Assembly (NCBI GenBank): GCA_043716655.1
Contig: JAYSYF010000076.1
Span: forward strand, 1-50,376
DNA: 50,376 bases
Direction: 5' to 3'
DNA from: Bdellovibrionales bacterium
Lineage (GTDB): Bacteria; Bdellovibrionota; Bdellovibrionia; Bdellovibrionales; JAMPXM01
Below, piece by piece: positions 11,880 to 43,431 of this stretch (positions within the stretch are counted from its first letter, which is position 1; each line of letters starts with the position of its first letter). Position numbers and translations under genes: made by a program. A model generated the notes under the pieces. It was given only the letters and a program-made list of their open reading frames with translations, searched no databases and was not told the origin of the DNA.

Positions 11880-11914
11880 GGCTTGCGAGATTAGCGCAGA
11901 ACTTCTGTCAAAAC

Positions 11915-17674: not shown

Positions 17675-20113
17675 ATGAATCAGGATGAAACAGACCAACA
17701 CAAGACTGAAAGCTGCTGCTCGGTGAAACCGACGAAACAACCGGAAAACCATGAGCACTGCACTATAGATCAACACGGCCACCATCATCACGCCCAGCCG
17801 ACAGACATCAAGGTCAAAGACCCGGTGTGCGGAATGCTGATTGATCCCGCAACGGCCAAAGGTGGAAAAAGCACCTTCGGGGGTCAGGATTTTTTCTTCT
17901 GCAATCCAAAGTGCAAGACGAAATTCGATGCGGATCCAAACGCCTATCTTGCTAAAGCGAGTCCTACAAAAGAGGTAAGCTCCGCCGATAAAGAGAAAAT
18001 CTACACCTGCCCGATGCATCCCGAGGTTCGCCAGCAGGGTCCGGGCAATTGTCCCATTTGCGGGATGGCGTTGGAACCAGAAGAAGTGAGCCTCGTCGAA
18101 GAAGAAAACCCAGAGCTTGTTGATTTCACGAAGCGACTCAAGGTCAGTATTCCGCTGACGATTCCGCTTCTGCTGTTGGCCATGTCAGACCTAATTCCTG
18201 GACAGCCCGTGCAGCACGCAATTCCTTCTTGGATCAATGCAGCAATTCAGTTTGTACTCGCGACTCCCGTCGTACTCTGGGGCGGCTTGCCGTTCTTCGA
18301 GCGAGGTTGGTCTTCGCTGAAAACTAGAAATTTTAATATGTTCACGCTGATCGCGCTCGGCACTGGAGTCGCCTACCTATTTAGTCTGGTTGGAACGTTC
18401 TTCCCTTCACTCTTTCCCGAAAGCTTAAAAGTTCATGGCGGTATGGTGCCTCTTTATTTCGAAGCTGCTGCCGTCATCACGACACTCGTCCTTTTAGGAC
18501 AAGTGCTTGAGCTCCGCGCTCGAAGCAAAACTGGGAACGCAATTCGCGCATTATTAGGACTCGCTCCGAAGACGGCAAAAATTGTTCGTGCAGATGGGTC
18601 CGAAGAAGATATTCCGGTGGAACACATTCATGTCGGCGATCTTCTTCGAGTGCGCCCTGGAGAGAAAGTGCCCGTTGACGGCGTGGTCACCGAAGGCCGA
18701 AGCCTTATCGATGAATCAATGGTTACGGGCGAACCGGTTGCTGTCGAAAAGAATCAAGACGATTCCGTGACCGGCGCAACCGTGAATGGGACTGGAAGCT
18801 TCGTGATGAAAGCAACGAAGGTTGGATCGGATACGCTACTCTCACAGATCGTAAAAATGGTTTCACAAGCGCAGAGAAGCCGCGCTCCGATTCAACAGTT
18901 AGCTGACAAAGTGGCTGGGTACTTTGTTCCCGGAGTGGTTTTGATCGCGGTCGCCACTGCGCTGGTTTGGTTTTTCGTCGGACCAGAGCCGCAGCTGACA
19001 TATGCGATCGTGAATGCCGTTGCCGTTCTCATCATTGCGTGTCCCTGTGCGCTTGGCCTCGCGACTCCAATGTCGATCATGGTGGGAGCCGGCAAAGGTG
19101 CCGGCTTAGGAGTGTTAATTAAGAACGCCGAAGCACTAGAAGGCATGCAAAAGATCACGACTCTTGTCGTTGATAAAACTGGGACCTTAACTCTCGGAAA
19201 ACCGAAGTTGTCTGTTGTGAAAACGCTACCGGGCTTCGACGAACATGAAACGCTCGCGCTGGTTGCGGCTCTCGAAAAATCGAGTGAACACCCATTGGCC
19301 GAAGCGATCGTTGATGGCGCTCTCGAACGAAAACTTACCATCCAATCAGTAGAAAACTTTGAATCCATCACAGGGATGGGAGTTAAAGGTACTGTCCACG
19401 GTCGCACGGTCCTTGTCGGCAATCGAAAACTTTTAGAAAAGTATGGTGTCGACACGACCGCGCTCTCCGCAATCGCGCAAGAGCTTCAGAGTACCGGCCA
19501 CGGTGCGATGCTGTCTGCGATTGATGGGAAACCCGCTGCTGTTATTGCCGTAAGAGATCCAATCAAAGAATCTTCAAAGCCTGCGATCAGTTACTTTCAC
19601 TCAAAAGGTATCGAAGTCATAATGCTAACCGGCGACAGTCGGCACACAGCTGAAGTCGTGGCGAGAGAAATGGGCATTGATCGCTTCGAAGCCGAAGTTC
19701 TTCCCGAGCAAAAGAACGAAGTAATCAAGCGTCTACAGGCACAAGGAAAAATCGTCGCAATGGCTGGTGACGGTATCAACGACGCTCCCGCCTTGGCTCA
19801 GGCAGACATCGGTATCGCTATGGGCACCGGAACTGACGTCGCGATGGAGAGCGCAAGTGTGACGCTAGTAAAGGGCGATTTGACAGGGATCGTGCGCGCC
19901 CACCGCCTAAGCCAGGCGACAATGCGAAACATCAAACAGAATCTAGTTTTTGCATTCGGGTACAACGCCCTCGGTGTTCCGCTAGCAGCCGGCGTGCTTT
20001 ATCCGTTTTTTGGAATTCTCTTGAGCCCGATGATAGCGAGCATTGCTATGAGTTTAAGTTCTGTCTCGGTTGTGGTGAATGCGCTTAGGCTTGGACGAGT
20101 GCGCCTCGACTGA
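17675..20113 (+). CDS. copA: Cu(I)-exporting P1B-type ATPase
   Basis: CPC in TM6 ([13 protein letters not shown]), [29 protein letters not shown]-terminus is His-rich ([14 protein letters not shown]), with a TRASH/YHS-like segment ([11 protein letters not shown]...[12 protein letters not shown]) and CPMHPEV...CPICGM. Confidence 0.95.
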
Positions 20114-20133
20114 GCTACCTGATCTCGTAACAA

Positions 20134-20534
20134 ATGGCTTTGACTGCTGAAGCATTCTCTATGGGGTCTAAAGTGCCACTGATTCTAGAAGTTTTAACTC
20201 TCGGTTTAGTCCTCTCCGTCGATTCGTTTTCTGCAGCGGTCGCCATGGGCAGCAAGCGATTTCGTACCAAGGAAATGCTAGCGTTTGCTTTTGCCTCTGG
20301 TGGCGGCGAAGCGCTTGCAACCCTTGTTGGTTTCTTCGCAGGTTCCAAAATCATTTCTTTGATTTCCGAGTACGATCATTGGTTCGCCTTTACGCTCTTA
20401 CTCGGTATCTCCCTGCATATGGCTTACGAGGGTCTTCAGGGCCTCCTGGGAAATCTTCTCCACGATTGCCGGTCTTTATGCTCATCGCAGCCGCGGTTCT
20501 CGGCTTTATGGCCGTTCAGATGTTGAAGATCTAA
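20134..20534 (+). pseudogene. mntP: mntP (DUF204 Mn efflux) remnant with internal deletion and frameshift
   Basis: The first ~105 aa fit MntP (LGLVLSVDSFSAAVAMG...EYDHWFAFTLLLGISLHMAYEGL). The frame then runs into non-membrane sequence. The expected C-terminal helix (PVFMLIAAAVLGFMAVQMLKI*) is readable only in another frame ending at 20534, and the second DUF204 repeat is missing. Confidence 0.55.
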
Positions 20535-20872
20535 CACGTGGTTCTTTCGGCGTGGGCATGTGGGTGTGACTTCTTATGGTGGCACTGTCCCTGCTCATAA
20601 GAGTGGTTAGAACGCTCTTGTACAGTCAGGCTGGTCTGTCGCGAAACATCGGGACAAACAGTCAAACTTTGAGACTAAACGACCCGAGCAGGTCCTTTCG
20701 ACGGGAGATAAATGAAAATTTATCAGTACGTGTCAAATGCCTGAAGTAAATCAGATCAATCCATTGCGAATTGAGAATTCCCTGGCTAGGGCCGAAAACT
20801 TTTTGACCACAGCCGAAGCAGCAATGAAGTTGCTCGCTAAATATATTCCTGAATGTTGCAGGTCCGGCCTTC

Positions 20873-22297
20873 ATGGCGGCTGATATTAAGAAATTCTTAT
20901 TCCGGGCCCTCCCGCTTATATTCGTTTGCCCGACGATCACTTTTGGCGAATCGCTAAGTGAGTTCGTCGCTTCCGTTAAACAATCGAACCCAGAACTTGA
21001 CGCACAAAAGAAACTAACCCAAGCCGAGAAGTTTCGAGCGAATGCTTCCGGGTACTGGGATGATCCCTTCATTGCCGTGGGCCCCGATGAAGTGCCTACA
21101 TCGGACCGACATGCCGGCATGATGCGCTACCAGATCAGTCAAACAATTCCGTTCCCTGGCCGTAAGGGCGCTCAAAAAGACGCAGCTGTTGCTAGGGCGA
21201 ACGCTTCAGAAGCATCGTCGGTTTCTGCGGAGCGCGAACTAACCGTCATCGCAGCACAACTCTATGCTCGTGCGTTCTATAGTCAGGCAGCGACAACGAC
21301 CAATCGCGAACAGCAGAAGTTGCTGACCGAAGTTTTAAGCAGTACTCGCTCGAGATACAAAACGGGAACAGGCGGTCATCACGAGTTGCTTCTAGCGCAA
21401 TTGGAGATCTCCACTCTCGAGGCCGAGTATCTGCGCCTCTCTCGTGAACTCAAGGTGTTAAAGGCGAAGATGAATGAACTAAAGTCAGCTCCGCCATCGA
21501 GCCCAATATCTTTGGAAAACGTTGTTCTTTCAGATTCTGTTCCGAAAACGTTCGACGAGGCCATGAATGGTCAGCCTGAGTTAATTGCAGCGGAAGCCGC
21601 ACTGTCGGCGTCCGGCTCGGAGCTAAGAAGCGCAAAGTTCTCTTACTTTCCTGATCTTGTTTTTCAGGGAATGTACATGCAGCCGCGCGGTCAGCCGATG
21701 ACGGACGGTATGGGCGGTACTGCACCAGCTGCGTCGTCTTCATACGGGATCATGCTTGGCGTATCACTCCCCGTCTTCTTCTTCGGGAAGCAATCCAATC
21801 TTTCTTCCGCCGCCCGAGCAACTCGTGATGCAAATTCGGTCCAACGCCGTGCGCTTGAAAACAGACTTCGGACTGAGTGGCTTGAGGCAACTGCGCAGGA
21901 AGAGACCGCTGAGGATTTGCTCCGTCTCTATAAAAAAGAGATTATTCCAAATACAGAGCTAGCTGCAAAGACGGGTCGATCCGCTTATGTCGCAAGAAGG
22001 CTTCCCCTAAGCCAATTCGTTGAAATCATGCGTGCGCAACGAACGCAGTCTCTCGAGAAGACCGCCGCCGAGATCGACGTCGCAATGGCAAAACTACGAA
22101 AAACTTATTTGCTCAGTCGCGCACCACAACTACGTTTAGCCCCCATGCGGCCGACACTATTTGGAGGCGCATCGATGGGTGCGATGGACGAATCAAGCTC
22201 TGACGCTGTGAACATGGGATCTGGGATGCGCTCTCCAGTTATTCAGAAAAAAACCGAGTCTCAGCAAAATAGCTCGAGCGGTATGGAGGGAATGTGA
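20873..22297 (+). CDS. cusC: outer-membrane efflux factor (TolC/CusC family)
   Basis: 474 aa, signal-like N-terminus, two long helix-rich repeats typical of OEP proteins, Met-rich C-tail. First gene of an operon with MFP and CusA genes. Confidence 0.8.
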   Translation: MAADIKKFLFRALPLIFVCPTITFGESLSEFVASVKQSNPELDAQKKLTQAEKFRANASGYWDDPFIAVGPDEVPTSDRHAGMMRYQISQTIPFPGRKGAQKDAAVARANASEASSVSAERELTVIAAQLYARAFYSQAATTTNREQQKLLTEVLSSTRSRYKTGTGGHHELLLAQLEISTLEAEYLRLSRELKVLKAKMNELKSAPPSSPISLENVVLSDSVPKTFDEAMNGQPELIAAEAALSASGSELRSAKFSYFPDLVFQGMYMQPRGQPMTDGMGGTAPAASSSYGIMLGVSLPVFFFGKQSNLSSAARATRDANSVQRRALENRLRTEWLEATAQEETAEDLLRLYKKEIIPNTELAAKTGRSAYVARRLPLSQFVEIMRAQRTQSLEKTAAEIDVAMAKLRKTYLLSRAPQLRLAPMRPTLFGGASMGAMDESSSDAVNMGSGMRSPVIQKKTESQQNSSSGMEGM

Positions 22298-23460
22298 TCT
22301 TAGGAAACGTCGTCATCACTCTATTCTTAAGCGTGGCTCCAGCGCAGCAGCAGCAGCAGTCGGTGCATGCCCCTGCTCAGCCGACGGCGCCTCAACCACC
22401 CAGCAAACCAGCTTTGGTTACCGCTACAAAAAAGCCGATCGCCGATGAGGCTCGAGTAACAGTGAAGGTACCTCAGTCGGAGCAAGGAAAAATCGGGTTG
22501 AAGACGGCAAAAGCCGAAAGTTCAAAGCTCAATTTCACAATACGTACTGTTGGTTCTATATCAGCAGATCAAGGGCGACAAGCTCATGTGCACACAAGGC
22601 TTAACGGATGGATCGAGCGAATCTTTGTCGATGCCATTGGCAAACCAGTAAAGAAGGGTGAAGTCCTTTTCGAGCTATACAGTCCCGACTTAGTTTCCAC
22701 CCAGGAAGAATATCTTGCGGCCCGAAACGGAAGCGTAACCGGCAAAGAGATCGCCGCGGCGGCACTCGAGCGCTTGCGTGGATGGAGTGTTCCTGAATCT
22801 GAGATTCGTCGCTTGAAATCTTCTGGCAAAATGAAAAGAACGATTTCTTTTGAATCACCAGTGACGGGTTTCGTGGTGAATAAAACTGCGATTCAAGGGA
22901 TGTACATTACTCCGGACATGGAGCTCTATCATATAGCCGATCTCGCACGAGTCTGGATTGTTGTTACACTTTATGAGTCTGATATTAACTCGATTAAAAC
23001 CGGCGACACTGCGGTCATTAAGCTTCCCTACGACGAGTCGCGAACCTTTCAGGCTCCGATTTCATATATTTATCCCGAACTAGATGTTGAGACGCGCACC
23101 TCGAAGGCGCGGATCGAACTTGATAATAAGACGCAGGCCTTGAAGCCAGGGATGTTTGTGAATGTCGAAATTGCAAAAAGTCTAGGTGAAGCAATCACCG
23201 TTCCTGATGATGCCGTGATCGATACCGGAATTCGAAAATTAGTATTCCTGAAAAAATCGGACACCGAATTTGAACCACGAGAAATCAAAGTGGGGCCGCG
23301 GGTTGAAGGCCGCGTAGCTGTTTTGTCCGGACTCTCAGTAGGAACCGAAGTCGTCGTTAGTGCGCACTTCCTTCTCGATGCAGAAAGCAAAGTACAGGCG
23401 GCTCTGCAGAAGGGTTCCGCGACGCAACCTGGGCACGAGTCACATGGGAAGAAAAAATGA
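22294..23460 (+). CDS. cusB: RND periplasmic adaptor (CusB-like membrane-fusion protein)
   Basis: GTGA overlap with the upstream stop. N-terminal anchor, then RQAHVHTRLNGWIERIFVDAIGKPVKKGEVLFELYSPDL (lipoyl/barrel-sandwich motif), and VWIVVTLYESD and PGMFVNVEI beta-barrel motifs. Confidence 0.85.
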   Translation: MILGNVVITLFLSVAPAQQQQQSVHAPAQPTAPQPPSKPALVTATKKPIADEARVTVKVPQSEQGKIGLKTAKAESSKLNFTIRTVGSISADQGRQAHVHTRLNGWIERIFVDAIGKPVKKGEVLFELYSPDLVSTQEEYLAARNGSVTGKEIAAAALERLRGWSVPESEIRRLKSSGKMKRTISFESPVTGFVVNKTAIQGMYITPDMELYHIADLARVWIVVTLYESDINSIKTGDTAVIKLPYDESRTFQAPISYIYPELDVETRTSKARIELDNKTQALKPGMFVNVEIAKSLGEAITVPDDAVIDTGIRKLVFLKKSDTEFEPREIKVGPRVEGRVAVLSGLSVGTEVVVSAHFLLDAESKVQAALQKGSATQPGHESHGKKK

Positions 23461-26400
23461 TCGGCGCGATCATAACCTATTGCAGTCGAAACTCTCGACT
23501 CACGATCGCGTTAGCTCTAGCTCTTGCCCTTTGGGGTGGGTACTGCCTCAACAAAATGCGGATCGACGCAATCCCCGATCTCTCTGACACTCAAGTCATC
23601 ATCTTTACCGAGTGGATGGGGCGAAGCCCAGAGCTCGTCGAAGAACAAGTCACGTACCCACTCGTTACGTCAATGCTTGCATCGCCCAACGTTTCATTAG
23701 TTCGCGGCCAATCAATGTTCGGAATGTCTTTTGTGTATGTCGTCTTCGAGGACGGCACGGATTTATATTGGGCAAGATCTCGAGTTCTTGAATCTTTATC
23801 CAAGTTGTCGGGAAGTTTACCTCAAGGCATCAGTCCCTCGATTGGACCCGATGCCTCTGGCGTTGGCTGGGTCTATCAGTATGCTCTGGTTGATCCATCG
23901 GGTAAGCTTGGCCTTCAGCAAATCCGCACTTTTCAAGATTGGTATTTGAAGTACTGGCTTTCGTCGGTTCCAGGAGTTGCGGAAGTCGCATCGATTGGTG
24001 GATTTGAAAAGCAATACCAAGTGGAGATTGATCCAAACAAGCTTTCGGCACTTAAAATTCCAATCGAAAGAGTCATCGCGGCAATTCGAGAGAGTAACCG
24101 AGATGTAGGAGGAAGAACGCTCGAGATTAGCGAACGAGAATTTTATGTTCGTGGCCGCGGTTATATAAAAAGTCCTCAAGACCTCGAAGATGTCACGATT
24201 ACCACGGCCGGAGGCGGAGTTCCGATACGGATTTCTGATATTGGACGTGTGACAATTGGACCTCAAATACGAAGAGGTGTTACGGACTTCAACGGGGACG
24301 GCGATACCGTCGGCGGCGTAGTCGTTATGCGACAAGGGGCTGATGTCTCCAATACGATCGCTGCGGTTAAAAAGAAAATCGAGGAAGTTCAGCGTGCATT
24401 TCCGGCCGGGCTTGAAATTCGACCGGTCTACGATCGGTCAGGACTCATCAAAGAAGCTGTTTCTACACTTCGAAATAATATTGTCGAGGAAATGATCTTG
24501 GTCACGCTGGTTATCCTCGTTTTTCTTTTTCACGTGCGGAGCGCACTCGTCGTGGCTATCACGATGCCGCTCGCCATCCTGATCTCGCTCATCCCCATGT
24601 ATTACTTCAAGATCAGCCTAAACATCATGAGTATGGGCGGCATCATTTTGGCTATCGGAGATATCGTCGACGGCATCGTTATCTTCATCGAAAATAGCCA
24701 TAAGAAAATTTCGGAGTTTCCGTCACGCCCACGCAACGAACTGATTATCGAGGCCTGCAAAGAAATGGGACCGTCGATTTTTAGTGCGCTGCTGATCATC
24801 GCCGTATCTTTCCTTCCAATTTTCGCTCTCCAAGCCCAAGAAGGAAAACTCTTTCACCCGCTCGCCTACACGAAAACATTTGCGATGTTGGCGGCAGCAC
24901 TGGTGACGATTACCGTGACCGCTCCGTTGATAATTCTGTTCGTCAAAGGCCGAATCCGGTCTGAAACTGAGAATCCAGTCAATCGTCTACTTGCTAAGAT
25001 CTATGAACCGATCTTGAGGTTTAGTCTTCGTCGGCGAAAACTTGTTCTCGCACTTCTTGCCGCAGTCGTCGTTCTCACGGGCGCTGCATTCACGAGATTG
25101 GGTTCTGAGTTCATGCCACCGCTTTGGGAAGGCGACCTTCTGTATATGCCCATTACGGTGCCAGGAATGTCGATAACTGCCGCCGCAGACTTGGTGCAAC
25201 GGCAGGGAAAAGCCATCCGCTCGATTCCAGAAGTTGAAAGCGTATTCGGAAAAGCCGGAAGATATGAAACCCCTACTGATGCGGCACCGCTTTCGATGTT
25301 TGAATATACGGTACGCTTAAAGCCTCGAGATCAGTGGCGAGAAGGTCTTGATGAAGAGCGTCTCCTCAAGGAACTCGACACCGCTGTCGCTGTTCCAGGA
25401 ATCAACCGAGCGTGGACGAAACCGATTCGGGGGCGGATCGATATGCTTTCAACGGGTATTCGTACGCCGGTCGGAATTAAAGTTTTTGCGCCCACCCTGC
25501 CCGCTATCGAAAAAATCGGACTCGAGCTCGAAGCAGCACTTGTTAATGTCCCCGGTACTCGAAGCGTGTACGCCGAACGTCTGGGCGGCGGCTCGTATCT
25601 AGATTTCGATCCTGATCGAAAGTCACTGCAAAGATACGGACTTAATGTCGGTGATGCTCTCAACGTCATAGAGACGGCGATTGGCGGAATGGAAGTGAGT
25701 CAGACCGTTGAGGGTCGTGAGCGCTACACGATCAATGTGCGCTACCCGAGAGAGTTGCGAGATACGATTGAAAAAGTCGGACGTATCCTTGTTGCGACGT
25801 CGACCGGTGCACAAGTACCATTGAGCCAGCTTGGAAAACTTTCGACGCAGTCTGGAGCACCGATGATCTTCAACGAAAATGGTTCGCTCGTGGGTTACGT
25901 TTACATCGACCTAGAGGGCCGTGATCCTGGAAGCTACGTTAAAGATGCTAAAGAAGCCGTAGCAAAGGCAGTAAGTCTTCCGCAGGGATCTTACATAAAG
26001 TGGACTGGGCAATACGAGAATTTGGCTCGCATGCAAGAGCGGATGAAGATCATCCTTCCGTTAACATTAGTCCTCATATTCGCGTTTCTATATTTTGGCG
26101 TTCGGTCGCTCTCGAAAACGATCATGATCATGGTCTCTGTGCCGCTATCTCTCATCGGCGGAATTCTTTTGATGTGGACTCTTGGGTACAACACGAGTGT
26201 TGCTGTATGGGCAGGCGCGATTGCTCTCATTGGTGTCGCAGTAGAAACAGCAGCGATCATGATTGTCTTTCTTGATCGCGCTTGGAAGTACAGGGCTGAA
26301 AGCAACAAGCTCAATACAGGATCAGATTTCATTGAGGCCACAATAAGTGGCGCGCAAGGAAGTCTTCGACCGGTCCTCATGGCTGTATCGATGAACATAT

Positions 26401-31322: not shown

Positions 31323-31337
31323 GACTACTAGCTCATT

Positions 31338-31379: not shown

Positions 31380-31686
31380 ACGGTTCGGAGTTTGCTTACC
31401 GAGGCACAACGAAACCAAAAAAATTCTTACATTTCTCATATTTGGCGCGCTGATAATATCTGGATGTGCACACTCTGCAAAGAAAGGCAGCGTCGCGATG
31501 AAGGTGAGCGACTCGGAGGCGCACGTTTGCCTGGACAAAGCGAAGGTTGGCGATCGATTGACGTTGTTCAGAAATAGCTGTCCGACTAAGGATACAACGT
31601 TGCGAGGGAGCAGCAACTTAGGGATGTGTGAAAAAGTACGTGTTGGCCAAGGAACCGTGTACCGATCGAAGAAGGTAACTTCGTAG
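31375..31686 (+). CDS. small lipoprotein, unknown function (start uncertain)
   Basis: The frame encodes KKILTFLIFGALIISGC (lipobox). The only in-frame start is GTG 31375, inside the hairpin, and it would give a 31-aa signal. Four further Cys in the mature part. Confidence 0.45.
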   Translation: MLRFGVCLPRHNETKKILTFLIFGALIISGCAHSAKKGSVAMKVSDSEAHVCLDKAKVGDRLTLFRNSCPTKDTTLRGSSNLGMCEKVRVGQGTVYRSKKVTS

Positions 31687-31704
31687 AATAGAGCGAAATT
31701 ATGC

Positions 31705-32268: not shown

Positions 32269-32276
32269 TTCGCCCC

Positions 32277-33452: not shown

Positions 33453-33469
33453 GTTCCCCCCGGCTACGG

Positions 33470-34150: not shown

Positions 34151-34158
34151 CCTAATTC

Positions 34159-34731
34159 TTAAGGTACAATGGCTGTGGAATTTAGAGACCCGTCCAGATT
34201 GACGTACACATTAAGCGTCTGAGTCTGGGCCGAAGAACGAACCTGAAGAACTGCGACGTCCTTACCGCCTAGCGAACCTTTGACAAGATCGAGGCTTGAG
34301 AAATCCTTGAAGTAAGGAGCAATGGTAGCGTCCGTGCCATTGTCCAAGACAAAGTGCATTCCGTTTTCGACAAGTTCTCCAGCATTCTTTGGCGCCCAAC
34401 CCACGTCAGGTCCGGCGACTCCGCCCGTTGAAGCTTTGAAAGATAGCGGTTTGCCATCCTTATCGAATTGCAACTCGAGTTGAATTGCTTGACCTGAAGT
34501 TGGTTGAGTCTGAGACGAGACCGATTTGAACGCCACCGGCGCCGGACCCGAGACTTCGGTGACCTCGATTTTTGACAGTCGCTTCTGAAACGAACCATCG
34601 ATCTTCCCGAGCGTTACGAGCCGATCGATTCGATGTGCTGAGAGTTCACCTATCTTCGCTTTCGAGACCGACTGCGCCATCGCAACTTGTGAACCTAAAA
34701 GTACCGACGCGAACAACAGTGCAAATTTCAT
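34159..34731 (-). CDS. exported hypothetical protein
   Basis: Signal MKFALLFASVLLGSQVAMAQ. 24 nt downstream of csoR. No recognisable motif. Confidence 0.65.
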   Translation of the reverse strand: MKFALLFASVLLGSQVAMAQSVSKAKIGELSAHRIDRLVTLGKIDGSFQKRLSKIEVTEVSGPAPVAFKSVSSQTQPTSGQAIQLELQFDKDGKPLSFKASTGGVAGPDVGWAPKNAGELVENGMHFVLDNGTDATIAPYFKDFSSLDLVKGSLGGKDVAVLQVRSSAQTQTLNVYVNLDGSLNSTAIVP

Positions 34732-34755
34732 ATTCCCCCCTTGAAACTGTGATTC

Positions 34756-35094
34756 TTAGAAAACTAATTTAATGATCTCTTGGATTTTCTCTTCGGACTT
34801 GAACGCATCCTTGCTTGCTAAGGCCGTACTGACACAGCCTCGTAAATGCGCCTTTAAGACTTCTGCTTCCGTCGCGCGAAGTCCTGCCGATGCCGCTTTC
34901 AGCTGCGCGATGATGTCAGGGCAGTATCTTCGGTCAAGAATCATTCGCTCGATCCCCTCGATTTGCCCTTTAACTCGGTTAAGCCTCTTAATGTGTTCCG
35001 AATGGTCCGGATGTTCATGTGCAACGGAACTGAGTGCGTTCGCTCTCGGTTGCACTTTTTTTACTTTTGCTCGCGCCGTCTGCTTTTCTAACAT
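34756..35094 (-). CDS. csoR: CsoR-family Cu(I)-sensing repressor
   Basis: DUF156 core RLNRVKGQIEGIERMI, with ligand pattern Cys (RRYCPDI) plus His-x3-Cys (KAHLRGC), which is the CsoR x-C-H-C fingerprint. His-rich N-tail HEHPDHSEH. Confidence 0.9.
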   Translation of the reverse strand: MLEKQTARAKVKKVQPRANALSSVAHEHPDHSEHIKRLNRVKGQIEGIERMILDRRYCPDIIAQLKAASAGLRATEAEVLKAHLRGCVSTALASKDAFKSEEKIQEIIKLVF

Positions 35095-35128
35095 CGCTCG
35101 TCATCCATCCATAATCGTTGTTGGAGAT

Positions 35129-35166
35129 TTGACACATACCCTACCGGGGCATAGTTTAGCCGTCAA
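35129..35166. promoter_or_regulatory. overlapping divergent promoters sharing a CsoR-type operator
   Basis: Plus strand: TTGACA (35129..35134), 17 nt, TAGTTT (35152..35157). Minus strand: TTGACG (35166..35161), 17 nt, TAGGGT (35143..35138). Between them lies ATACCCTACCGGGGCATA (35136..35153), which resembles the ATACCC..GGGGTAT CsoR boxes I remember from Bacillus and Listeria. Confidence 0.6.
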
Positions 35167-35187
35167 CATACTTTAAAAAGGGTGACG

Positions 35188-35949
35188 ATGAAACATTTTG
35201 GAATTCTTCTGGGACTTGGGGTCATTGCTTTATGGGGACAGCCATCGTCTGCGCATGGGACACAGGAAAGTCGTGTCGAGATCGAGCCGGTCGCGACATC
35301 GACCGTCGCCGGTACCACGCAGTATGCGTTTCAACTCGTGGATACGAGCAAAAGCAGTCTCATTGGCGACGTGGAACTTAACATCTCACACGAAATGAAA
35401 CTTCATTTGATTGTTTATGATCCGTCGCTCGGCGAATTCCAGCACGTGCATCCCGAATTCGACGGAACCAACTGGATGGTGACACTGCAATTTGCGGTCA
35501 ATGGAAATTACTGGGTTTGGGCGCAGGGGGAGCTTGCGGTCGACGGCGAAAAATTTTCTTCTTCAACAAGACTTGATGTCACGAATGGAGCCGCACAGCT
35601 GCCCGCGCCACCGGTGCTCGGTGACCGGCGATTGGGAAGCCTCGGAGTTTCAGCCGTTGATATCGGCAAAACAAAAATCACGGCAGGCAAGATGGTAATG
35701 CTGGACTTAAAGATGTCGCGAACAGACGGCACGTCTCCGCAACTTGCACCATACTTGGGAGCATTTGCACACATCATCGCGACAACCTCAGACGGTGACG
35801 AACTCATTCACGTTCATCCGATGGGGACCACCGCTACTGCCGGAATGATCCACGCGACATTCCCAGCAGCCGGTGACTATCGCCTGTGGGTCCAATATAT
35901 AGATGGCGGCAACCTGATCACGATACCCTTATCGGTCAAAGTTAATTGA
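35188..35949 (+). CDS. exported protein with two tandem beta-rich domains, each carrying an HVHP motif
   Basis: ATG 35188 (AAGGG upstream) gives signal MKHFGILLGLGVIALWGQPSSAHG. Repeat 1 is ...KLHLIVYDPSLGEFQHVHPEF...NGNYWVWAQ. Repeat 2 is ...AFAHIIATTSDGDELIHVHPMG...AGDYRLWVQY. Confidence 0.7.
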   Translation: MKHFGILLGLGVIALWGQPSSAHGTQESRVEIEPVATSTVAGTTQYAFQLVDTSKSSLIGDVELNISHEMKLHLIVYDPSLGEFQHVHPEFDGTNWMVTLQFAVNGNYWVWAQGELAVDGEKFSSSTRLDVTNGAAQLPAPPVLGDRRLGSLGVSAVDIGKTKITAGKMVMLDLKMSRTDGTSPQLAPYLGAFAHIIATTSDGDELIHVHPMGTTATAGMIHATFPAAGDYRLWVQYIDGGNLITIPLSVKVN

Positions 35950-36073
35950 TCCCAAACTCAGGAACGCGACACGCTTCATCTCGATACACCGGTTCCGCTA
36001 GTGAATCGCTCAAAGAAATGTCGCGAAGGATTAGATTGAAATCGTGAAGATTAGATGGTGTCATAATAGAACG

Positions 36074-36445
36074 ATGCGTGTGCTGATATACTTTTTTTGC
36101 ATTTCGATTTTTGCTCTAAGCGGGCTAATGCCCGCATCGGCACTCGCACATGCGGATAGCGCCTCACACGTCGCTATCATTGTCGTAGTAACTCACTCCC
36201 ATGAGCACGTCCACGAAGCACACCATCACACAGATTCGAAACACTCTGCACCAGCGGAAGGACATCATTCCGACCAACACTCGCATGAGCATTTTGTTTC
36301 TTGCGCTCATCCAATTTGGCTTGAGGCCTCGCGTTTTGAAACAGCAGCAATCGAGTTTATCAACCCGCACTCGTTTATTTTTAAACGTTCAGTGCCGGCG
36401 ACTCGAGCCCTAGGCTCAATTTTCCGCCCTCCGATCCACGCTTAG
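36074..36445 (+). CDS. small His-rich exported/membrane protein
   Basis: ATG 36074 gives signal MRVLIYFFCISIFALSGLMPASALA. The mature part has about 20 His (THSHEHVHEAHHHTDSKHS...GHHSDQHSHEH). It lies immediately upstream of the RND gene. Confidence 0.55.
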   Translation: MRVLIYFFCISIFALSGLMPASALAHADSASHVAIIVVVTHSHEHVHEAHHHTDSKHSAPAEGHHSDQHSHEHFVSCAHPIWLEASRFETAAIEFINPHSFIFKRSVPATRALGSIFRPPIHA

Positions 36446-36549
36446 TCCCCTCCTCTAATAAAATTTTTCCCACAAAATCTTTCGTTTTGTAATCATCGGC
36501 CGTTCTACGTGCGTAATCATACGACACGTCGAACGGTCAGGAGAAAACC

Positions 36550-39500
36550 ATGCTGAACGCGCTCATCCGCTTTTCGCTGAAGAAGCGACTCTTAGTCGGT
36601 CTCATTGCACTTGCACTTTGTGTTTACGGAGCATGGCTGCTGCAGAGCCTGCCCGTCGACGTGTTTCCAAATTTGAACCGACCAACAGTCACAGTCCTTA
36701 CGGAAGCGCATGGGCTTGCTCCGGAAGAAGTGGAAACGCTCGTGACCCTTCAGATCGAAACGGTCCTGAACGGAACTCCCGGAGTCTTGCGACTTCGATC
36801 GAGCAGCGGAATCGGCATTTCGATCGTCTACATCGAGTTTGACTGGGGAACCGAAATATTTCGAAATCGACAACTAGTTGCAGAGAGACTTCAGCTTTTG
36901 GAAGGAAGGCTGCCGCCACGGATGCAGCCCGTAATGGGACCGGTCACGTCGATCATGGGAGAAATCCAGTTTGTTGGTGTCACGAGCCCCGACGATAAGA
37001 TTTCACCGATGGAGCTTCGAACACTCGCCGACTGGACGCTTCGCCCACGGTTGATGACAATTCCAGGCATCAGCCAAGTTGTCGTTATGGGCGGCGAAGT
37101 GAAACAATACCAAATTCACATCTCCAACGAAAAGCTTCAGCGAAAAAACGTATCGCTCGAAGACCTCAAAGAAACGCTGGCTAAAATCAGCGAGAATACG
37201 ACCGGCGGTTTCATCGACATCGGAGAAAAGGAATTTTTAATTCGGCCCATCGGTCGGGCGTTAACTCTCGAGGATATCGAAAACTCTCTCGTGGCAATGC
37301 ACTTTGGTAAACCGGTGCTCGTCAAAGATGTCGCCGAAGTTAAGATCGCTGCAAAACCCAAACGCGGCGAAGGTAGCATCAACGGCAAGCACTCAGTCAT
37401 CATGACACTTCAAAAACAACCAAGTGCGAGCACTATTGAGCTTACACGCGCGATCGAACGCGAACTAAAGGCGATGGAAAAGTCTTTGCCAGCAGGAGCG
37501 AAACTCGAAACCGACCTGTTTAAGCAGTCGCATTTTATCGAATCCGCCATTGGCAATGTGGAAGAAGCGCTTCGTGATGGAATCATCATGGTCGCCATCA
37601 TTCTATTTTTATTTCTAATGAACTTCCGAACCACTGGGATCACGCTCGTCGCTATCCCCTTGAGCCTTCTCATCACCGCAATTATTTTCCACATTTTCGG
37701 TATTACGATCAACACGATGACGCTTGGAGGTCTTGCCATCGCCATCGGCGAGTTGGTCGACGACGCGATTGTCGATGTTGAAAACGTTTTTAGACGGCTT
37801 CGCGAGAACCGCACTGCCGGATCGCCGAAAGGAAACTTGCGAGTCATCTATGAAGCTTCGAGCGAGGTTCGAAATTCAATCGTGCTCTCGACGATCATCG
37901 TAGTTCTCGTATTCATTCCGCTTTTCGCTCTAGGCGGAATCGAAGGGCGATTGTTTGTTCCACTCGGCGTGGCGTATATCATCTCGATTCTCGCTTCACT
38001 TTTTGTTTCGCTAACGGTGACCCCCATTCTCTGTTCGTATCTGTTACCGAACTCGAAGGCCGTACACGATCAGAACGATGGCCGACTGGTTCGAGGCCTG
38101 AAGCGCTTCGCAGTGAAAATTCTAGATTGGACACTGCCACGACCGATTTTAATCCTCGGCCTCGCTGCGCTCTTGCTTGCATTGAGTCTTGCGCTCTTAC
38201 CAATGATGGGTCGAAATTTTCTGCCCGATTTTAACGAAGGCACTGCGACGATAGGAATCGCTGCGGCACCAGGCATTTCGCTAGCCGCGTCGGACAAGCT
38301 TGGAATCAAAATCGAAGAGGCTATACTCTCGGTTCCGGAAGTGAAATCCACGGTTCGTCGAACCGGACGCGCCGAAATGGACGAGCACGCAGAAGGAGTC
38401 CACTGGCACGAGGTTGATGTCGATTTCAAACCGGATGGTCGCGATCGTGAAGTCGTCCTTCAAGAGATTCGAGAAAAGATCGAAAAAGTGGGCGACGTTT
38501 CCGTCAACCTCGGTCAACCCATCAGTCATCGTCTGGATCACCTGCTTTCTGGCGTGCGAGCCCAGATCGCAATTAAAATTTTCGGGCCCGACCTCGGCGA
38601 ACTTCGCCGTCTTGGTGGCGAGACTTTCGATGCACTTCAAGGAATCGATGGCGTTGTAGATCTACAGACCGAGCCACTCGTCCTAATTCCGCAATTAAAA
38701 ATTGCGATCGATCGGGAAGGTGGAAGTAAACTCGGAATCCGAAGCGGCAGTCTCGCGGAAGATTTGGAAATTGCCCTCAACGGTGCCACGGTCGCGCAGA
38801 TTCTCGAAAATCAAAGGATGTTCGACGTCACCGTGCGGCTCGACGAAAGCTCTCGCGCGACGCCAGAACGAATTTCGGAAACTCTCGTCAAGTTCCTACC
38901 GACGGCGCAAGCAGTACGGCTGGGGGAGGTTGCGAATGTGTATGAAGGCACTGGGCCAAACATGATCAATCGAGAGGACATGCAACGGAGGATCGTGATT
39001 TCGGCAAACACACACGGTCGCGATTTGGGCAGTGTCGTGGGCGACATTAAAACAGCGCTCGACACGAAAATTAAATTGAGTGAAGGCTACTTCATTAAAC
39101 TTGGTGGGCAATTCGAAAGCCAGCAAGCCGCTTCCAAGCGAATTTTTTGGCTGGGACTGCTTGCAGTGTTGGGAATTTTCTTTGTTCTTTTCGTGCACTT
39201 CAAGTCCACCATTTTGAGTCTTCAGGTCATGATGAACATTCCGCTCGCGCTGATTGGCAGTATCGTCGCGATCTTTATTACAGAGAGAACGCTTTCCGTG
39301 GCGACTCTCGTTGCCTTCATCACCCTCTGCGGAATTTCGACTCGAAACGGAATTTTGTTGATCAGCCACTACCTGCACTTGATGAAGGAAGAAGGCGAAG
39401 AGTTTGACGCGAAGATGGTCATTCGCGGCTCGCTCGAGAGAATGGTGCCTGTGCTTATGACGGCTTCAACGGCAGCGTTAGCACTTGTTCCGCTACTTCT

Positions 39501-39684
39501 GTCCAGAGGCCAGCCTGGCAAAGAGATTCTATATCCTGTCGCAGTCGTAATCGTAGGAGGTCTCGTATCGTCGACGTTACTCGATCTCGTCGTAACGCCG
39601 ACCGTTTTCTTGAGATTTGGTAAGAAGGCCGTTTCAAAGTATTTAAAGGACAGTCCACAACACGAACAAGGAGAATGGAAATGA
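36550..39684 (+). CDS. HME-RND heavy-metal efflux pump (CzcA/CusA superfamily, not the Cu(I) Met-cluster type)
   Basis: 1044 aa, AGGAGA SD, 12-TM RND layout. TM4 motif GGLAIAIGELVDDAIVDVEN. The positions equivalent to the CusA Met triad are not Met (FNEGTATIGIA...). Confidence 0.95.
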   Translation: MLNALIRFSLKKRLLVGLIALALCVYGAWLLQSLPVDVFPNLNRPTVTVLTEAHGLAPEEVETLVTLQIETVLNGTPGVLRLRSSSGIGISIVYIEFDWGTEIFRNRQLVAERLQLLEGRLPPRMQPVMGPVTSIMGEIQFVGVTSPDDKISPMELRTLADWTLRPRLMTIPGISQVVVMGGEVKQYQIHISNEKLQRKNVSLEDLKETLAKISENTTGGFIDIGEKEFLIRPIGRALTLEDIENSLVAMHFGKPVLVKDVAEVKIAAKPKRGEGSINGKHSVIMTLQKQPSASTIELTRAIERELKAMEKSLPAGAKLETDLFKQSHFIESAIGNVEEALRDGIIMVAIILFLFLMNFRTTGITLVAIPLSLLITAIIFHIFGITINTMTLGGLAIAIGELVDDAIVDVENVFRRLRENRTAGSPKGNLRVIYEASSEVRNSIVLSTIIVVLVFIPLFALGGIEGRLFVPLGVAYIISILASLFVSLTVTPILCSYLLPNSKAVHDQNDGRLVRGLKRFAVKILDWTLPRPILILGLAALLLALSLALLPMMGRNFLPDFNEGTATIGIAAAPGISLAASDKLGIKIEEAILSVPEVKSTVRRTGRAEMDEHAEGVHWHEVDVDFKPDGRDREVVLQEIREKIEKVGDVSVNLGQPISHRLDHLLSGVRAQIAIKIFGPDLGELRRLGGETFDALQGIDGVVDLQTEPLVLIPQLKIAIDREGGSKLGIRSGSLAEDLEIALNGATVAQILENQRMFDVTVRLDESSRATPERISETLVKFLPTAQAVRLGEVANVYEGTGPNMINREDMQRRIVISANTHGRDLGSVVGDIKTALDTKIKLSEGYFIKLGGQFESQQAASKRIFWLGLLAVLGIFFVLFVHFKSTILSLQVMMNIPLALIGSIVAIFITERTLSVATLVAFITLCGISTRNGILLISHYLHLMKEEGEEFDAKMVIRGSLERMVPVLMTASTAALALVPLLLSRGQPGKEILYPVAVVIVGGLVSSTLLDLVVTPTVFLRFGKKAVSKYLKDSPQHEQGEWK

Positions 39685-40127
39685 AGAGTCTCATCATGTT
39701 TTTGATATTAGGTATTGCAAGCTTGGCTCAGGCACATGACGAAGGCCATGGACCGAAGCTTGCCGACACCGGAAAGTATGGAGGCCTCGTGTCGGCCGTC
39801 GTTTTGAAAGCCGATGCGACGAAAGGTGCGGCCGCAACGCTTGTCTACAAAGCCGAACTTGTAAGATCAGCGGATGGAACGACGCGTGTTTATCTTTACG
39901 ACACGGCAATGAAGCCGGTCGATTCGAAAGGCTTCGACGCTAAAGGTTCGGCATCGCTTGCCGCAAAGGTAAAGGGCAAGTGGAAGTCAGTCGATTTTCC
40001 CATGGTTCTTAAAGATAAATCGTTTGTCGGCACCATGCCGAAACCAGAAGCGAAACCATATAATATCGACGTCACGTTAAAGCATGACGGCAAAGAGCTA
40101 CTCACGGCGTTCGACAATCTCGACTAA
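39681..40127 (+). CDS. small exported protein between the RND and OMF genes (unknown family)
   Basis: ATG 39681 (AAGGAG 7 nt upstream, ATGA overlap with the RND stop) gives signal MKSLIMFLILGIASLAQA. The mature N-terminus is HDEGHGPK, the protein is beta-rich, and there is no coiled coil. Confidence 0.65.
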   Translation: MKSLIMFLILGIASLAQAHDEGHGPKLADTGKYGGLVSAVVLKADATKGAAATLVYKAELVRSADGTTRVYLYDTAMKPVDSKGFDAKGSASLAAKVKGKWKSVDFPMVLKDKSFVGTMPKPEAKPYNIDVTLKHDGKELLTAFDNLD

Positions 40128-40138
40128 GGAGTTTTAAA

Positions 40139-41407
40139 ATGAAGTCACAGACCGCTCTCATCATCTCGGTTTTGACCGGATTAACTCTGGCGACATCGGT
40201 CGGCGAAGCGCTTTCGATTCGATTCGAAGATCTTCCTCGCCTCGTCACTGAGAAAAATGAAAACGTCAAAGCGTCGGCATTTGCCATGAAAGCACAGTCG
40301 GAACGAACGGGTTTTTTGGCCCGTTCGTTTCTTCCTCAGCTGTCGGCCTCACTGGGGCAGGAGGAATTCAAAACCGGATCGTCACCGTCCGCTCAACAAG
40401 AGTATTGGCGAATTGAAGGTTCACTGAATTTATACCGAGGCGGTCGTGACAAACTTGAAAATCAAATTCGAAACGGACAACGCGAGTTAGCGGGACTCAA
40501 TCACTCGAGCGAAATACAAAGAGAGTTACGGGAAGCCAAGCGAGCGTATTGGCAGGTGCTGGCAATCGCCAAATTGATCGCAGAGCGAAAAGAGGCTCGC
40601 GATAAAAATGAAGCCAATCTCAAGTCTGCACGTCGGCGAGCGGGGGCCGGGATAACAACAACTGCGGACGCCGCGCAGTTCGAACTCCACAAGTTAACGC
40701 TCGAGCGTGATATTAAGAGGTTAGGTCTCGAACACCACCGCATTGTGAACCTGTTGAGCGTCGCGCTCGCTCTGGACGAACACGAGAATATCGAGGTGGT
40801 TGGAGATTTTCCAGCTATAGAAAGCGCGACGCCTGTGAAAACACTGGAAGTCGGGAAGCAGATCGAGGTTCGGAATTACCAAGAGCTTCAACGAGTCGAC
40901 GAACTAAGAGCGTCAAGATTGGCGCGCTGGTTCTTACCAAGACTCGATCTGTACACAAGTTATGGATTGCCGTCGCTAACAGACGAATACGACAGAGCGC
41001 TGCGAAAACAGCAGGAGTGGACCGCAGGAGTTCGAGTCACCATTGATCTCGGCCAAAGCATTGAAGAGCGAAGGGAGGCAGGCGCTCGATCTGCGGATGC
41101 TAGTGCTGCGCAAATGCGGGGCGCGCACAGACTTCGTGAAGTCATCGCCAATGACCACGATTTGCGACAGGACATTGCGGTAACCGCCGATTTGATCAAG
41201 GACTCTGAAAACGCCGTTGCCCAAGCGCAGAAGTTTTTAAAACTCACGGAGGCTGAGTATTCGCGAGGAGCCAAAAATGGACCGGATCTTCTCGAGGCTT
41301 TTCGGACTTACTTCGAGTTTCGCGAGCGTCGAATCGATTACCTTCGCGAATACTTCGAAACGAAGGCGCAACTTGAAAGTTTAGTGGCTGGAGCTGAACC
41401 TTCGTGA
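40139..41407 (+). CDS. outer-membrane efflux factor (TolC family)
   Basis: AAGGAG SD, signal MKSQTALIISVLTGLTLATSVGEA, two helix-rich OEP repeats (e.g. LYRGGRDKLENQIR, AQKFLKLTEAEYSRGAKNGPDLLEA). Confidence 0.85.
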   Translation: MKSQTALIISVLTGLTLATSVGEALSIRFEDLPRLVTEKNENVKASAFAMKAQSERTGFLARSFLPQLSASLGQEEFKTGSSPSAQQEYWRIEGSLNLYRGGRDKLENQIRNGQRELAGLNHSSEIQRELREAKRAYWQVLAIAKLIAERKEARDKNEANLKSARRRAGAGITTTADAAQFELHKLTLERDIKRLGLEHHRIVNLLSVALALDEHENIEVVGDFPAIESATPVKTLEVGKQIEVRNYQELQRVDELRASRLARWFLPRLDLYTSYGLPSLTDEYDRALRKQQEWTAGVRVTIDLGQSIEERREAGARSADASAAQMRGAHRLREVIANDHDLRQDIAVTADLIKDSENAVAQAQKFLKLTEAEYSRGAKNGPDLLEAFRTYFEFRERRIDYLREYFETKAQLESLVAGAEPS

Positions 41408-42714
41408 AAAAGCTTTCCTTAACTTCTCGGATGTTGCTCGGCCGATTGCTCACGCGGTCGGGCGATCAGGCGTGGGACTTTGCGGTTCCGATCGTGCTCT
41501 TGCATTTGATGCCTGGCGAACTTCGCGTGGCCGCCCTCTATTTTTTGCTTATTAGAATTGCGACAGTCATCTTTCTCCCGCGTCTCTCAATGTTGATCGA
41601 TCGCTTCGACCGCATGAAGTCAGTGTCGTTAGGTATCGTTCTTCAACTTGCTGGCGTCGTTGGAGGCTTCGTTAGCGTCGGTTTTCTCCCGACCGGAAAC
41701 GTCGACTATTTACAGTCCATGAACTTCATCATCATGTTCACACTTCTGGTCCTCAGCGGAATCGTAAGTCAGCTTGGTTCAAGCTTTATGGACATTGCGA
41801 TTGCGAATGATCTTGTACCGTCGACTTTCCAAGGAACGGCACTCACAAAATTCAATAGCCGCCTCCGACAAGTGGACCTAGCAACCGAAGTGGGTTCACC
41901 GATCGTCACGGGACTTTTGCTACTCGTATCGACCACTGCCTATCCCCTACTTGGCTTCGCACTTGTTGCTCTTTGGAACGTGCTTTCGTTTTTCCCAGAG
42001 TATTTGATATTAAAATCGGTATTCACAGAAAGAACCGACCTCAAGGAAAAACCAATTCTCTTAGATCCGTCGAAAACAAAACCGATCTTAGTAAAGATGC
42101 GCGACGGATGGCGTTCGTTTTTTCGTCAGCCTATCGCTCCGGTTATGCTTGCGTACGCGGTTCTCTGGCTTTCAGTTTTAAGCCCGCACGGCGTGCTTCT
42201 TACGGCGTTTTTGAAAGACGGCTGGCGTTTGCCGGAATGGTCGATCGGTGTATTTCGCGGACTCGGCGCTGTTTTCGGGCTGATGGCAACGCTGCTCGTA
42301 CCGATTTTAGCAAAACGCATGTCGATTGAAAAATCGAGTCTTGTATTCCTCGCCATTCAATCGGTCAGCCTGATGATAGCACTTGGGTTCTTCTTCGTCG
42401 GCGACACCGTTGGGCAAATCGGTTTTCTGGTGGCTGTCTTGTTCTCGCGGATAGGGCTCTACGGATTTAGTCTTGGAGAGATGCAGATTCGACAAACAGC
42501 GATTCCCACGAATGCGCGCGGAGAAATCAACGGTTTCGCGTCCTCTCTAACTGCACTCGCAACGATCGGGCTATATTCTGCGGGCGTCGGAATACCGTCG
42601 ACTAGCGATTTCAAGTATCTGATTGTTTTGTCAGTGGGTTTTGTCTTGAGTGCACTCGCCGTGTACACCGTGTGGTATCTTAAAAAAACCGATGAACGCG
42701 CTATTTTAAAGTAA
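41404..42714 (+). CDS. ferroportin-like (SLC40/FPN family) MFS divalent-metal exporter
   Basis: GTGA overlap with the OMF stop. About 12 TM helices. The N-terminal RSGDQAWDFAVPIVL matches the ferroportin GDxxWxFAv signature. Size is similar to the characterised Bdellovibrio ferroportin homologue (from memory). Confidence 0.75.
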   Translation: MKKLSLTSRMLLGRLLTRSGDQAWDFAVPIVLLHLMPGELRVAALYFLLIRIATVIFLPRLSMLIDRFDRMKSVSLGIVLQLAGVVGGFVSVGFLPTGNVDYLQSMNFIIMFTLLVLSGIVSQLGSSFMDIAIANDLVPSTFQGTALTKFNSRLRQVDLATEVGSPIVTGLLLLVSTTAYPLLGFALVALWNVLSFFPEYLILKSVFTERTDLKEKPILLDPSKTKPILVKMRDGWRSFFRQPIAPVMLAYAVLWLSVLSPHGVLLTAFLKDGWRLPEWSIGVFRGLGAVFGLMATLLVPILAKRMSIEKSSLVFLAIQSVSLMIALGFFFVGDTVGQIGFLVAVLFSRIGLYGFSLGEMQIRQTAIPTNARGEINGFASSLTALATIGLYSAGVGIPSTSDFKYLIVLSVGFVLSALAVYTVWYLKKTDERAILK

Positions 42715-43309
42715 ATAGACCGTATAAGAAATCCTGCTCGGTCGCCCAGGGCGTTTCGTGAGTTTTCCGCTCGAGTCGAGCGACCTCGAATCCCGCGCCA
42801 ACTTCTTTCACCAAACTACTTTCGTCATATCGCATCACTTCAAGCCCACTGCATTTGTTAGGTCCCGATTCGGAAAATGTGGCCAAAATAAGTTTTCCGT
42901 TCGGAAGCAGTGAGGAGCGCATCGATTCGAAGTATTGCTTTCTTGAATTCGCGTCGGTTAGAAAATGAAAGACGGCTCGGTCGTGCCAAAGCGCAAACGG
43001 TCGCGGTGCAGTGAACGCCGTGACGTCTCCTTCAATCCACTCAACTAGAGACTTGCGTGCACCTAATCGCATTTTTGACTGTTGCAACGCGGCCGTGGAA
43101 ATATCCATCACCGCCGGAAGTTTGTAGCCTGCGTCCAAAAGATGATCGACGAGTATTGAGGTTCCCCCGCCAACATCGACGACGGCACCATTTCGATCGG
43201 GAACACATTCCAGGATCCAGTCGATCGATGGTGATGGAGTCGATTGGGTCCAACTCGTTTGCGCCGATGACTTCTTTGCGTAAACCTTATCCCAATACGC
43301 TTTATTCAT
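42701..43309 (-). CDS. class I SAM-dependent methyltransferase
   Basis: ATG 43309 (GGAG upstream) gives MNKAYWDKVY. Motif I is VVDVGGGTSILVDHLLDAGY. The 3' end overlaps the ferroportin-like gene convergently by 14 nt. Confidence 0.85.
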   Translation of the reverse strand: MNKAYWDKVYAKKSSAQTSWTQSTPSPSIDWILECVPDRNGAVVDVGGGTSILVDHLLDAGYKLPAVMDISTAALQQSKMRLGARKSLVEWIEGDVTAFTAPRPFALWHDRAVFHFLTDANSRKQYFESMRSSLLPNGKLILATFSESGPNKCSGLEVMRYDESSLVKEVGAGFEVARLERKTHETPWATEQDFLYGLFTLK

Positions 43310-43358
43310 AAAGATCGCTCCACCAATCCGTGAATCAACATGGCAAATTCGTTGCAAG

Positions 43359-43431
43359 CATTGCGATGAGCTTAAGTTCGGTCTCGGTTGTGGTAAACGC
43401 GCTGAGGCTTGGACGAGCTCGAGTGGACTGA
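43359..43431 (+). pseudogene. orphan 3'-terminal fragment of a copA-like P1B ATPase gene
   Basis: My hand alignment to 20041..20113 gives 62/73 identical nt, same strand, including the stop. It encodes [24 protein letters not shown] versus cop[25 protein letters not shown]. No ATPase sequence lies upstream of it. Confidence 0.8.

Follow-up and report, generated by a model that had tools for sequence, protein, structure and literature searches.

A stranded copA 3' end in a mosaic metal-resistance region of a Bdellovibrionales contig: probable relic of a second copA allele

Contig JAYSYF010000076.1 of a Bdellovibrionales bacterium (assembly GCA_043716655.1) carries an intact gene for a P1B-type Cu+-ATPase, copA, and, behind a region of metal-resistance genes, a second and orphan copy of a copA 3' end. 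In this paper we looked at the whole contig of 50,376 nucleotides (nt), called the window below, and at the origin of the orphan, which lies at 43354..43434. Based on its substitution pattern, its place among copA alleles and the gene order in relatives, we suggest, with a probability of roughly 0.62, that the orphan is what is left, as a non-functional pseudogene, of another copA allele that differs from the intact one and is named here copA2. The direct repeat that the orphan forms with the intact gene would therefore be the ordinary homology of two gene copies and not a recombination site.

The repeated copA terminus and its divergence

Self-BLAST of the window yielded only one match at E<1e-3 in the whole 50 kb, a direct repeat of 81 nt on the same strand (20036..20116 and 43354..43434) with 84% identity (68/81), which is far beyond chance (E 9e-18), and a repeat finder returned the same pair as its top family. 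The two copies are 23,318 nt apart. A first-pass annotation of the window had aligned the inner part of this repeat by hand (20041..20113 with 43359..43431, 73 nt); its count of 62/73 identities was reproduced, both of the identical runs that it had named, GTCTCGGTTGTGGT and AGGCTTGGACGAG, were found (14 and 13 nt, the longest ones), and the self-comparison that it proposed for the exact limits extended the repeat to the 81 nt given above. The left copy corresponds to the last 26 codons, with the stop, and 3 nt of the intact copA. The orphan consists of 25 sense codons, a TGA (43429..43431) and 3 nt, with neither a start codon nor a gene body; an in-frame stop (43309..43311) is located upstream of it, and no similarity to copA exists to the left of 43354. 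The near-identical peptide with its own TGA that had been ascribed to the orphan is indeed there, with 23 of its 25 residues identical to the window CopA. There is no other copA fragment in the window, including a 5' copA piece that would be the sign of a copA2 split by an insertion, and neither copy of the repeat showed a promoter or terminator signal above shuffled expectation.

The differences between the two copies are scattered along the 81 nt and fall nearly all at third codon positions. Within the 78 coding bases the orphan differs from the window copA at 12 positions, 10 of them third positions (binomial P for at least 10/12 of ~5e-4), and eight of the ten codons affected still code for the same amino acid. 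Both replacements are in the C-terminal tail of the protein, which is variable across orthologs (VRLD, LRVD, IRVD, VRLE, and AFKD). Neutral drift over a similar period would be expected to give ~14 changes at first and second positions in the orphan, and two are seen. Such a third-position bias indicates that purifying selection acted on the orphan while most of its divergence arose; nearly all of this divergence took place inside a working copA, and the truncation is recent relative to it. The pattern indicates that the orphan diverged as part of a functional copA and is not a fresh duplication.

To which copA allele the orphan belongs can be judged from loci of other genomes, designated here by L and a number. 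Over the 81 nt the orphan matches the window copA at 68 positions, the copA of L064, L065, and L071 at 69, that of L066 at 66 and that of L001 at 63, and L064 and L071 have the same final 14 nt (CGAGTGGACTGAAC), of which 2 nt come after the stop. Since the orphan is as near to the L064/L065/L071 gene as to the window gene, it can be regarded as a separate allele at an ordinary between-species distance and not as a copy of the resident gene. The peptide at the copA 3' end is specific to a narrow copA clade that comprises the window, L001, L038, L002, and L064-L071. Window CopA orthologs are 90-92% identical in amino acids (aa) in L001, L064, and L066, and a scan of genome contigs with CopA found no conspecific genome (best match 91% aa). 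The left copy matches its orthologs at 66/81 positions in L001 and 67/81 in L066, which is also the level found over the remainder of the gene (about 84%), and it appears to be native to the window copA. The proposal that the last 81 nt of the intact gene are a foreign mimic was rejected on this comparison, in which 81 nt have little power.

Joints of the orphan and the mosaic between the two copies

Both edges of the orphan are abrupt. On its left, homology to L088-L090 ends at ~43313, 4 nt from the ATG of a methyltransferase gene, and is followed by a spacer of 40 nt (Table 1), which was matched by nothing in the fetched loci (1.47 Mb) and which may supply a GGAG-type ribosome-binding site for the methyltransferase. 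On its right stands a hybrid histidine kinase gene, with 76-77% nt identity to L062/L063; the kinase orthologs (80-81% aa identity) have 543-553 aa and end with "...RESHV*". In the window the kinase homology stops at ~43438-43439, the native stop codon is lost, the downstream sequence that is conserved in L062/L063 is absent, and the kinase frame is extended by ~30 codons, which cross the orphan in antisense before a stop at 43372 is reached. Judged from these alignments, both edges are illegitimate joints, and the orphan is an 81-nt piece that was stranded between them. In none of the three kinase contexts does copA stand beside the kinase, and the native upstream and downstream neighbors of the kinase, which would be a sign of insertion beside it, are found nowhere else in the window.

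The end of the intact copA is also a place where gene order changes. The module of multicopper oxidase (MCO), CueR and CopA is conserved at 81-89% nt identity in L064 and L067, and synteny ends 0-3 nt from the copA stop codon in every relative examined downstream. The genes that follow differ per relative: type IV secretion system (T4SS) genes in L064, nhaC in L066, a methyl-accepting chemotaxis protein gene in L067, a ferredoxin gene in L069, hypothetical genes in L070 and a sigma-like gene in L071. In L064 (L064:12852-22353) the MCO-CueR-CopA genes, with a CopA that is 90% identical, are followed by a sigma-70 region-4-like gene and then by TrbC, TraC/VirB4, TrbI, and TraG; the sigma-like neighbor of copA is common to L064 and L071. 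Judging from the L064 context, related bacteria would carry this copper module on a conjugative element. Of the multicopper oxidase gene only scraps are left in L001.

The 23.3 kb interval between the two copies is best described as a mosaic of at least three metal-resistance modules (Table 1, modules a to c) with separate histories, and not as one unit. In L001 and L038, the nearest copA relatives (L001 about 84% nt), cueR and copA are followed by a lipoprotein gene, yceI and an ankyrin-cupredoxin gene, with a gap between copA and the lipoprotein gene of ~150 nt in L038 and with ~1.4 kb of other genes in this gap in L001. These three genes correspond to 31.4-33.1 kb of the window at 80-81% nt identity, close to that of copA itself, and what L001 and L038 are without is only 20114..~31400. 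The block from yceI to csoR is linked to copA in L003, and in L037 it is linked to the second resistance-nodulation-division (RND) efflux operon, RND2-OEP2, which is there followed by cueR and a full copA; in L004 and L005 a full copA comes directly after RND2-OEP2. The third part of the interval, 36251..43312 (from hyp133 to the methyltransferase gene), forms one block in L088-L091, with 76.7% nt identity over 7,069 nt to L088. In the window the methyltransferase gene and a ferroportin-like gene are convergent with an overlap of 14 nt, and L088-L091 have a 202-aa methyltransferase ortholog with the same overlap. This ortholog (76% aa) was found via its ferroportin neighbor, and a direct scan of metagenome contigs gave ≤50% identity only. 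In L088-L091 the block continues into phosphatase/phosphoesterase genes, and there is no copA relic there. In L092 and L093 the module c block is without the methyltransferase gene and lies beside a phage-type integrase; in L092:1-4158 the hyp133-RND2-OEP2-ferroportin genes adjoin genes for a phage-type integrase, HTH_17, DUF3987, and a terminase, in what can be a prophage or an integrative element.

Pfam and NCBIfam scans, which covered all open reading frames (ORFs) of at least 80 aa in 20114..43353 and the flanks, detected no integrase, transposase or conjugation (T4SS) genes in the window, and no tRNA gene was detected there either. The Pfam matches confirmed the earlier gene list between the two copies with one correction, as the ATPase at 27631..30051 is of the P2 type (Cation_ATPase_N/C) and is not a P1B pump. 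A contrast in GC or k-mer composition between 20114..43358 and its flanks, which had been proposed as a check for an island, was not found: the GC content of the interval (0.49-0.51) and its tetranucleotide usage are within the range of arbitrary chunks of the window.

Several neighboring features are worth recording. The P2-type ATPase gene belongs to an unusual operon (26573-31322), in which a Zn-dependent alcohol dehydrogenase, this ATPase, which is not a heavy-metal one, and an acetyl-CoA hydrolase/transferase come after cusCBA with overlapping stop and start codons. Directly 3' of the CoA-transferase gene, at the right edge of the 11.3-kb segment absent from L001 and L038, there is a perfect inverted repeat of 20 bp with a 4-nt loop (31337..31380), which is probably a terminator hairpin. 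A number of genes are decayed. The mntP relic (20134-20870) has ~105 intact codons and is then frameshifted; the lipoprotein gene (31375..31686) shows ATG changed to ACG, a 3-nt deletion near its start and a frameshifting deletion of ~49 nt that removes the C-terminal 30 residues. Other relics are a TPMT fragment without its first ~100 residues and a DUF1996 gene that is split into two overlapping ORFs (14028-14381; 11915-12510). Neither Pfam nor NCBIfam matched any of ten ORFs of 130-385 aa that follow one another within 1-13400. To the right of the orphan, the first-pass annotation had placed a serine-recombinase fragment. The 158-aa ORF is present, outside the repeats and beyond the kinase gene, but its Recombinase-domain match is marginal (E 2e-4, 21.9 bits vs a cutoff of 21.1), it has no NCBIfam match and it does not contain a catalytic domain. 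Beyond it lie response regulators and cheB/cheR. An inverted repeat of 33 nt (43777-43809 and 46156-46188, 82% complementary) flanks the recombinase-like fragment in opposite orientation; it reflects the paralogy (52% aa) of the kinase receiver domain with a stand-alone response regulator (46033..46506).

Table 1. Genes, modules and other features around the two copies of the copA 3' end (positions in the window)
Feature	Position	Strand	Remarks
Multicopper oxidase gene	14930..17074	-	Divergent from copA
cueR-like merR gene	17100..17486	-	Divergent from copA
copA, intact P1B Cu+-ATPase gene	17675..20113	+	812 aa; Pfam E1-E2_ATPase, Hydrolase, HMBD, YHS
Module a: frameshifted mntP, OEP-CusB-CusA efflux operon, Zn-dependent alcohol dehydrogenase, P2-type ATPase, CoA-transferase	20114..31400	+	Pfam
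Module b: decayed small lipoprotein gene (31375..31686); yceI, ankyrin-cupredoxin, cytochrome c, hyp190, csoR (-); hyp255 (+)	31375..35949	mixed	Pfam
Module c: CopL-like hyp133, RND2, hyp150, OEP2, ferroportin-like major facilitator superfamily gene, convergent methyltransferase gene	36044..43313	+	CopL_fam match weak
S-adenosylmethionine-dependent methyltransferase gene	42704..43309	-	202 aa from ATG at 43309; Pfam Methyltransf_25/11/12
Spacer	43314..43353		40 nt between methyltransferase start codon and orphan
Hybrid histidine kinase/receiver gene	43372..45129	-	Pfam HisKA, HATPase_c, Response_reg
158-aa ORF with marginal Recombinase-domain match, no catalytic domain	45420..45896	+	PF07508 positions 2-50 of 102

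Possible origins of the orphan

One of the questions that the repeat raises is how a copA end came to stand between a methyltransferase gene and a kinase gene. The mechanism that fits our data best is that copA2 formerly had the RND2-ferroportin-methyltransferase block on one side and the histidine kinase gene on the other. This allele would come from the same narrow Bdellovibrionales copA clade, with a tail resembling the allele beside the conjugation genes in L064. An illegitimate deletion or rearrangement may then have removed the body of copA2, together with whatever lay upstream of it, and what remained would be the 78 coding bases between two joints, of which the left one consists of the 40 unmatched bases and the right one took the stop codon of the kinase. 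We infer both the order of these events and the former presence of a full-length copA2 at this place in this lineage. In L037, L004, and L005 a full-length copA is located 0.1-1.3 kb downstream of the orthologous RND2-OEP2 in the same orientation, and the orphan is located 2.0 kb downstream of OEP2; this match in position and orientation counts for the decay of a second copA, as do the several other decayed genes of the region (mntP, the lipoprotein gene, TPMT, DUF1996, and the recombinase fragment). The first-pass annotation had already offered a second copA that was mostly deleted as one of its two explanations; the third-position pattern, the distinct allele and the copA genes after RND2-OEP2 in these three distant relatives favor it, though they do not prove it.

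Several observations weigh against such a decay. Among the relatives, none turned up in which a full-length copA stands next to the kinase or immediately follows the methyltransferase gene. L088, which is the closest relative for module c, runs into phosphatase genes, L088-L093 are without a full copA there, and the three kinase contexts are without copA as well. At least two separate breakpoints within ~130 nt are not parsimonious for a simple deletion in place, and the assignment to an allele, which rests on 81 nt only, is statistically weak. Lastly, an independent orphan of a copA 3' end with nearly the same left limit is present in an alphaproteobacterial metagenome-assembled genome (MAG), L033, which hints at a more systematic cause.

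The L033 orphan was the only other one found when 62 copA loci were scanned for the motif AMSLSSVSV with a short upstream frame, so that two of the 62 loci examined, the window and L033, have an orphan 3' end starting at nearly the same codon. In L033 the two copies (L033:10855-10921 and L033:11526-11592) share a 67-nt core that is identical at 64/67 positions. The orphan has a divergent tail (RAVKL* vs KTMKL*) and its own stop, at a distance of 671 nt downstream from the corresponding stretch of the intact gene. The L033 repeats bracket a DUF305 gene in an insert of 0.67 kb, the DUF305 ORF reads on through the orphan, and the left limit of this orphan is 3-4 codons from that of the window orphan. 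From this likeness one could propose that the conserved stretch for the last transmembrane helix of CopA is a recurrent point of recombination or insertion, behind which metal cargo is slotted with an orphan end displaced each time, the window (23.3 kb) and L033 being independent examples. We regard this proposal as doubtful and give it a low probability. Two cases may be a coincidence, as gene decay ends in small relics, or they may point to a preferred joint at the copA terminus, and the two of them do not separate these options.

Another option is that the orphan was never a complete gene at this place and is a terminal scrap of imported DNA, for example the edge of an L064-like mobile module, or filler from the repair of a double-strand break. 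The illegitimate joints on both sides within ~130 nt, including the 40 nt and ~5 nt of unmatched, filler-like sequence, would fit such an origin, and so would a tail that matches the L064/L071 allele, given that the L064 copA is followed by TrbC, VirB4/TraC, TrbI, and TraG. The copA end also behaves as a module boundary, as synteny breaks within 0-3 nt of its stop in every relative, and no relative has a full copA at the spot of the orphan. Yet the window contains no other piece of an L064-like element, neither the sigma-like gene nor the T4SS genes, and the more distant L037, L004, and L005, which place a full copA after RND2-OEP2, fit decay in place. The sequences at hand fit imported DNA and a relic of copA2 alike. 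We consider the import of a scrap unlikely, and still the most plausible of the alternatives to the decay of copA2.

The other explanation of the first-pass annotation was an island inserted into the 3' end of copA, with the two copies as attL and attR. In its fuller form an island that itself contained a mimic of the copA terminus would have entered the conserved part of copA that encodes the last helix, either through a site-specific recombinase or through one crossover of a circular intermediate; the original end would have been displaced to 43.4 kb, and the integrase would since have been lost or lie elsewhere. The architecture invites this idea: both repeats run in the same direction on one strand and close with a stop codon, with metal-resistance cargo between them; L033 has an orphan of the same architecture around its DUF305 gene; the genes 3' of copA differ in every relative; and gene-end islands that restore the end of their target are known (SGI1 in trmE, PMC2297512; dusA islands, PMC4482086). 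It is not supported. There is no integrase or excisionase in or beside the interval, only the marginal recombinase-like fragment beyond the kinase. The interval is not a unit, as L001/L038 are missing 20114..31400 only, and L088 has 36251..43312 in a different setting that includes no copA relic. The right flank is a truncated kinase gene and not the native downstream region of copA, and kinase orthologs never adjoin copA; an empty site, with copA followed directly by the kinase side, appeared in none of 12 copA contexts or three kinase contexts. Composition shows no contrast, and the last 81 nt of the intact copA are as diverged from the orthologs as the rest of the gene. An identity of 84% with a longest run of 14 nt is too low for a RecA-mediated single crossover; integration by such homologous recombination can be excluded on these two values together with the third-position bias, according to which the differences pre-date the truncation. 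An attachment-site origin is in our view quite improbable.

It can also be asked whether the orphan is an artefact of assembly, that is, a chimeric MAG join at a copA k-mer common to co-occurring strains. The window is a whole MAG contig, and related copA alleles do co-occur in environmental samples. However, the orphan shares at most 14 identical bases in a row with the copA of the contig, too few to seed a join in the assembly graph, and such a join would have to account for two different junctions only 81 nt from each other, and single short reads should normally reach across such a distance. Both flanks are coherent: nt identity to L088 is 76.7% for the methyltransferase block, and the kinase gene reaches 76-77% with L062/L063. 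A chimera therefore has a very small probability, the smallest of the origins considered here.

If the orphan is a relic of copA2, it calls for caution, since a direct repeat of a gene end around resistance genes can resemble att sites and here would be the homology of an intact gene with a relic. The orphan should be annotated as a copA pseudogene fragment, and the 30-codon tail of the kinase as a read-through caused by the junction. If a broad survey bore out the left limit that is shared with L033, this would suggest that the copA terminus is a preferred joint for the assembly of copper-resistance clusters.

Comparison with known systems

Elements that integrate into the ends of protein-coding genes with imperfect direct repeats are the systems that the window resembles at first sight. 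These include SGI1, at the 3' end of trmE/thdF, and the dusA-specific islands, and like them the window has direct repeats that match a conserved gene end, an intact target gene and resistance cargo in between. The window differs from them in that it has no integrase, forms no unit in relatives and has no empty site that could be found. Moreover, its repeats are 84% identical with a synonymous pattern and seem to share no crossover core, although a short one may be present, and beyond the distal copy stands an unrelated gene that is broken. In the literature searched, copA is nowhere reported to serve as the attachment site of an island.

A second comparison is with cueR-copA-MCO genes as cargo of conjugative or other mobile elements. 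The likeness here is in the module itself, which stands beside T4SS genes in L064 and has an IS3-family transposase nearby in L067, whereas in the window no conjugation, transposition or integration genes were detected.

The closest likeness is to the gene remnants that are left in resistance regions after the loss of a redundant paralog or a displaced xenolog. As in such remnants, the orphan is a short in-frame terminal piece with no start codon, it carries a substitution pattern that was once under selection, and it has decayed neighbors in a mosaic cluster. It differs from them in that its full-length counterpart is found only in the more distant L037, L004, and L005 and not in the closest L088, and in that the relic is now read antisense as a C-terminal extension of the kinase. 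Seen as such a remnant within a mosaic cluster of resistance genes, the orphan is nothing out of the ordinary.

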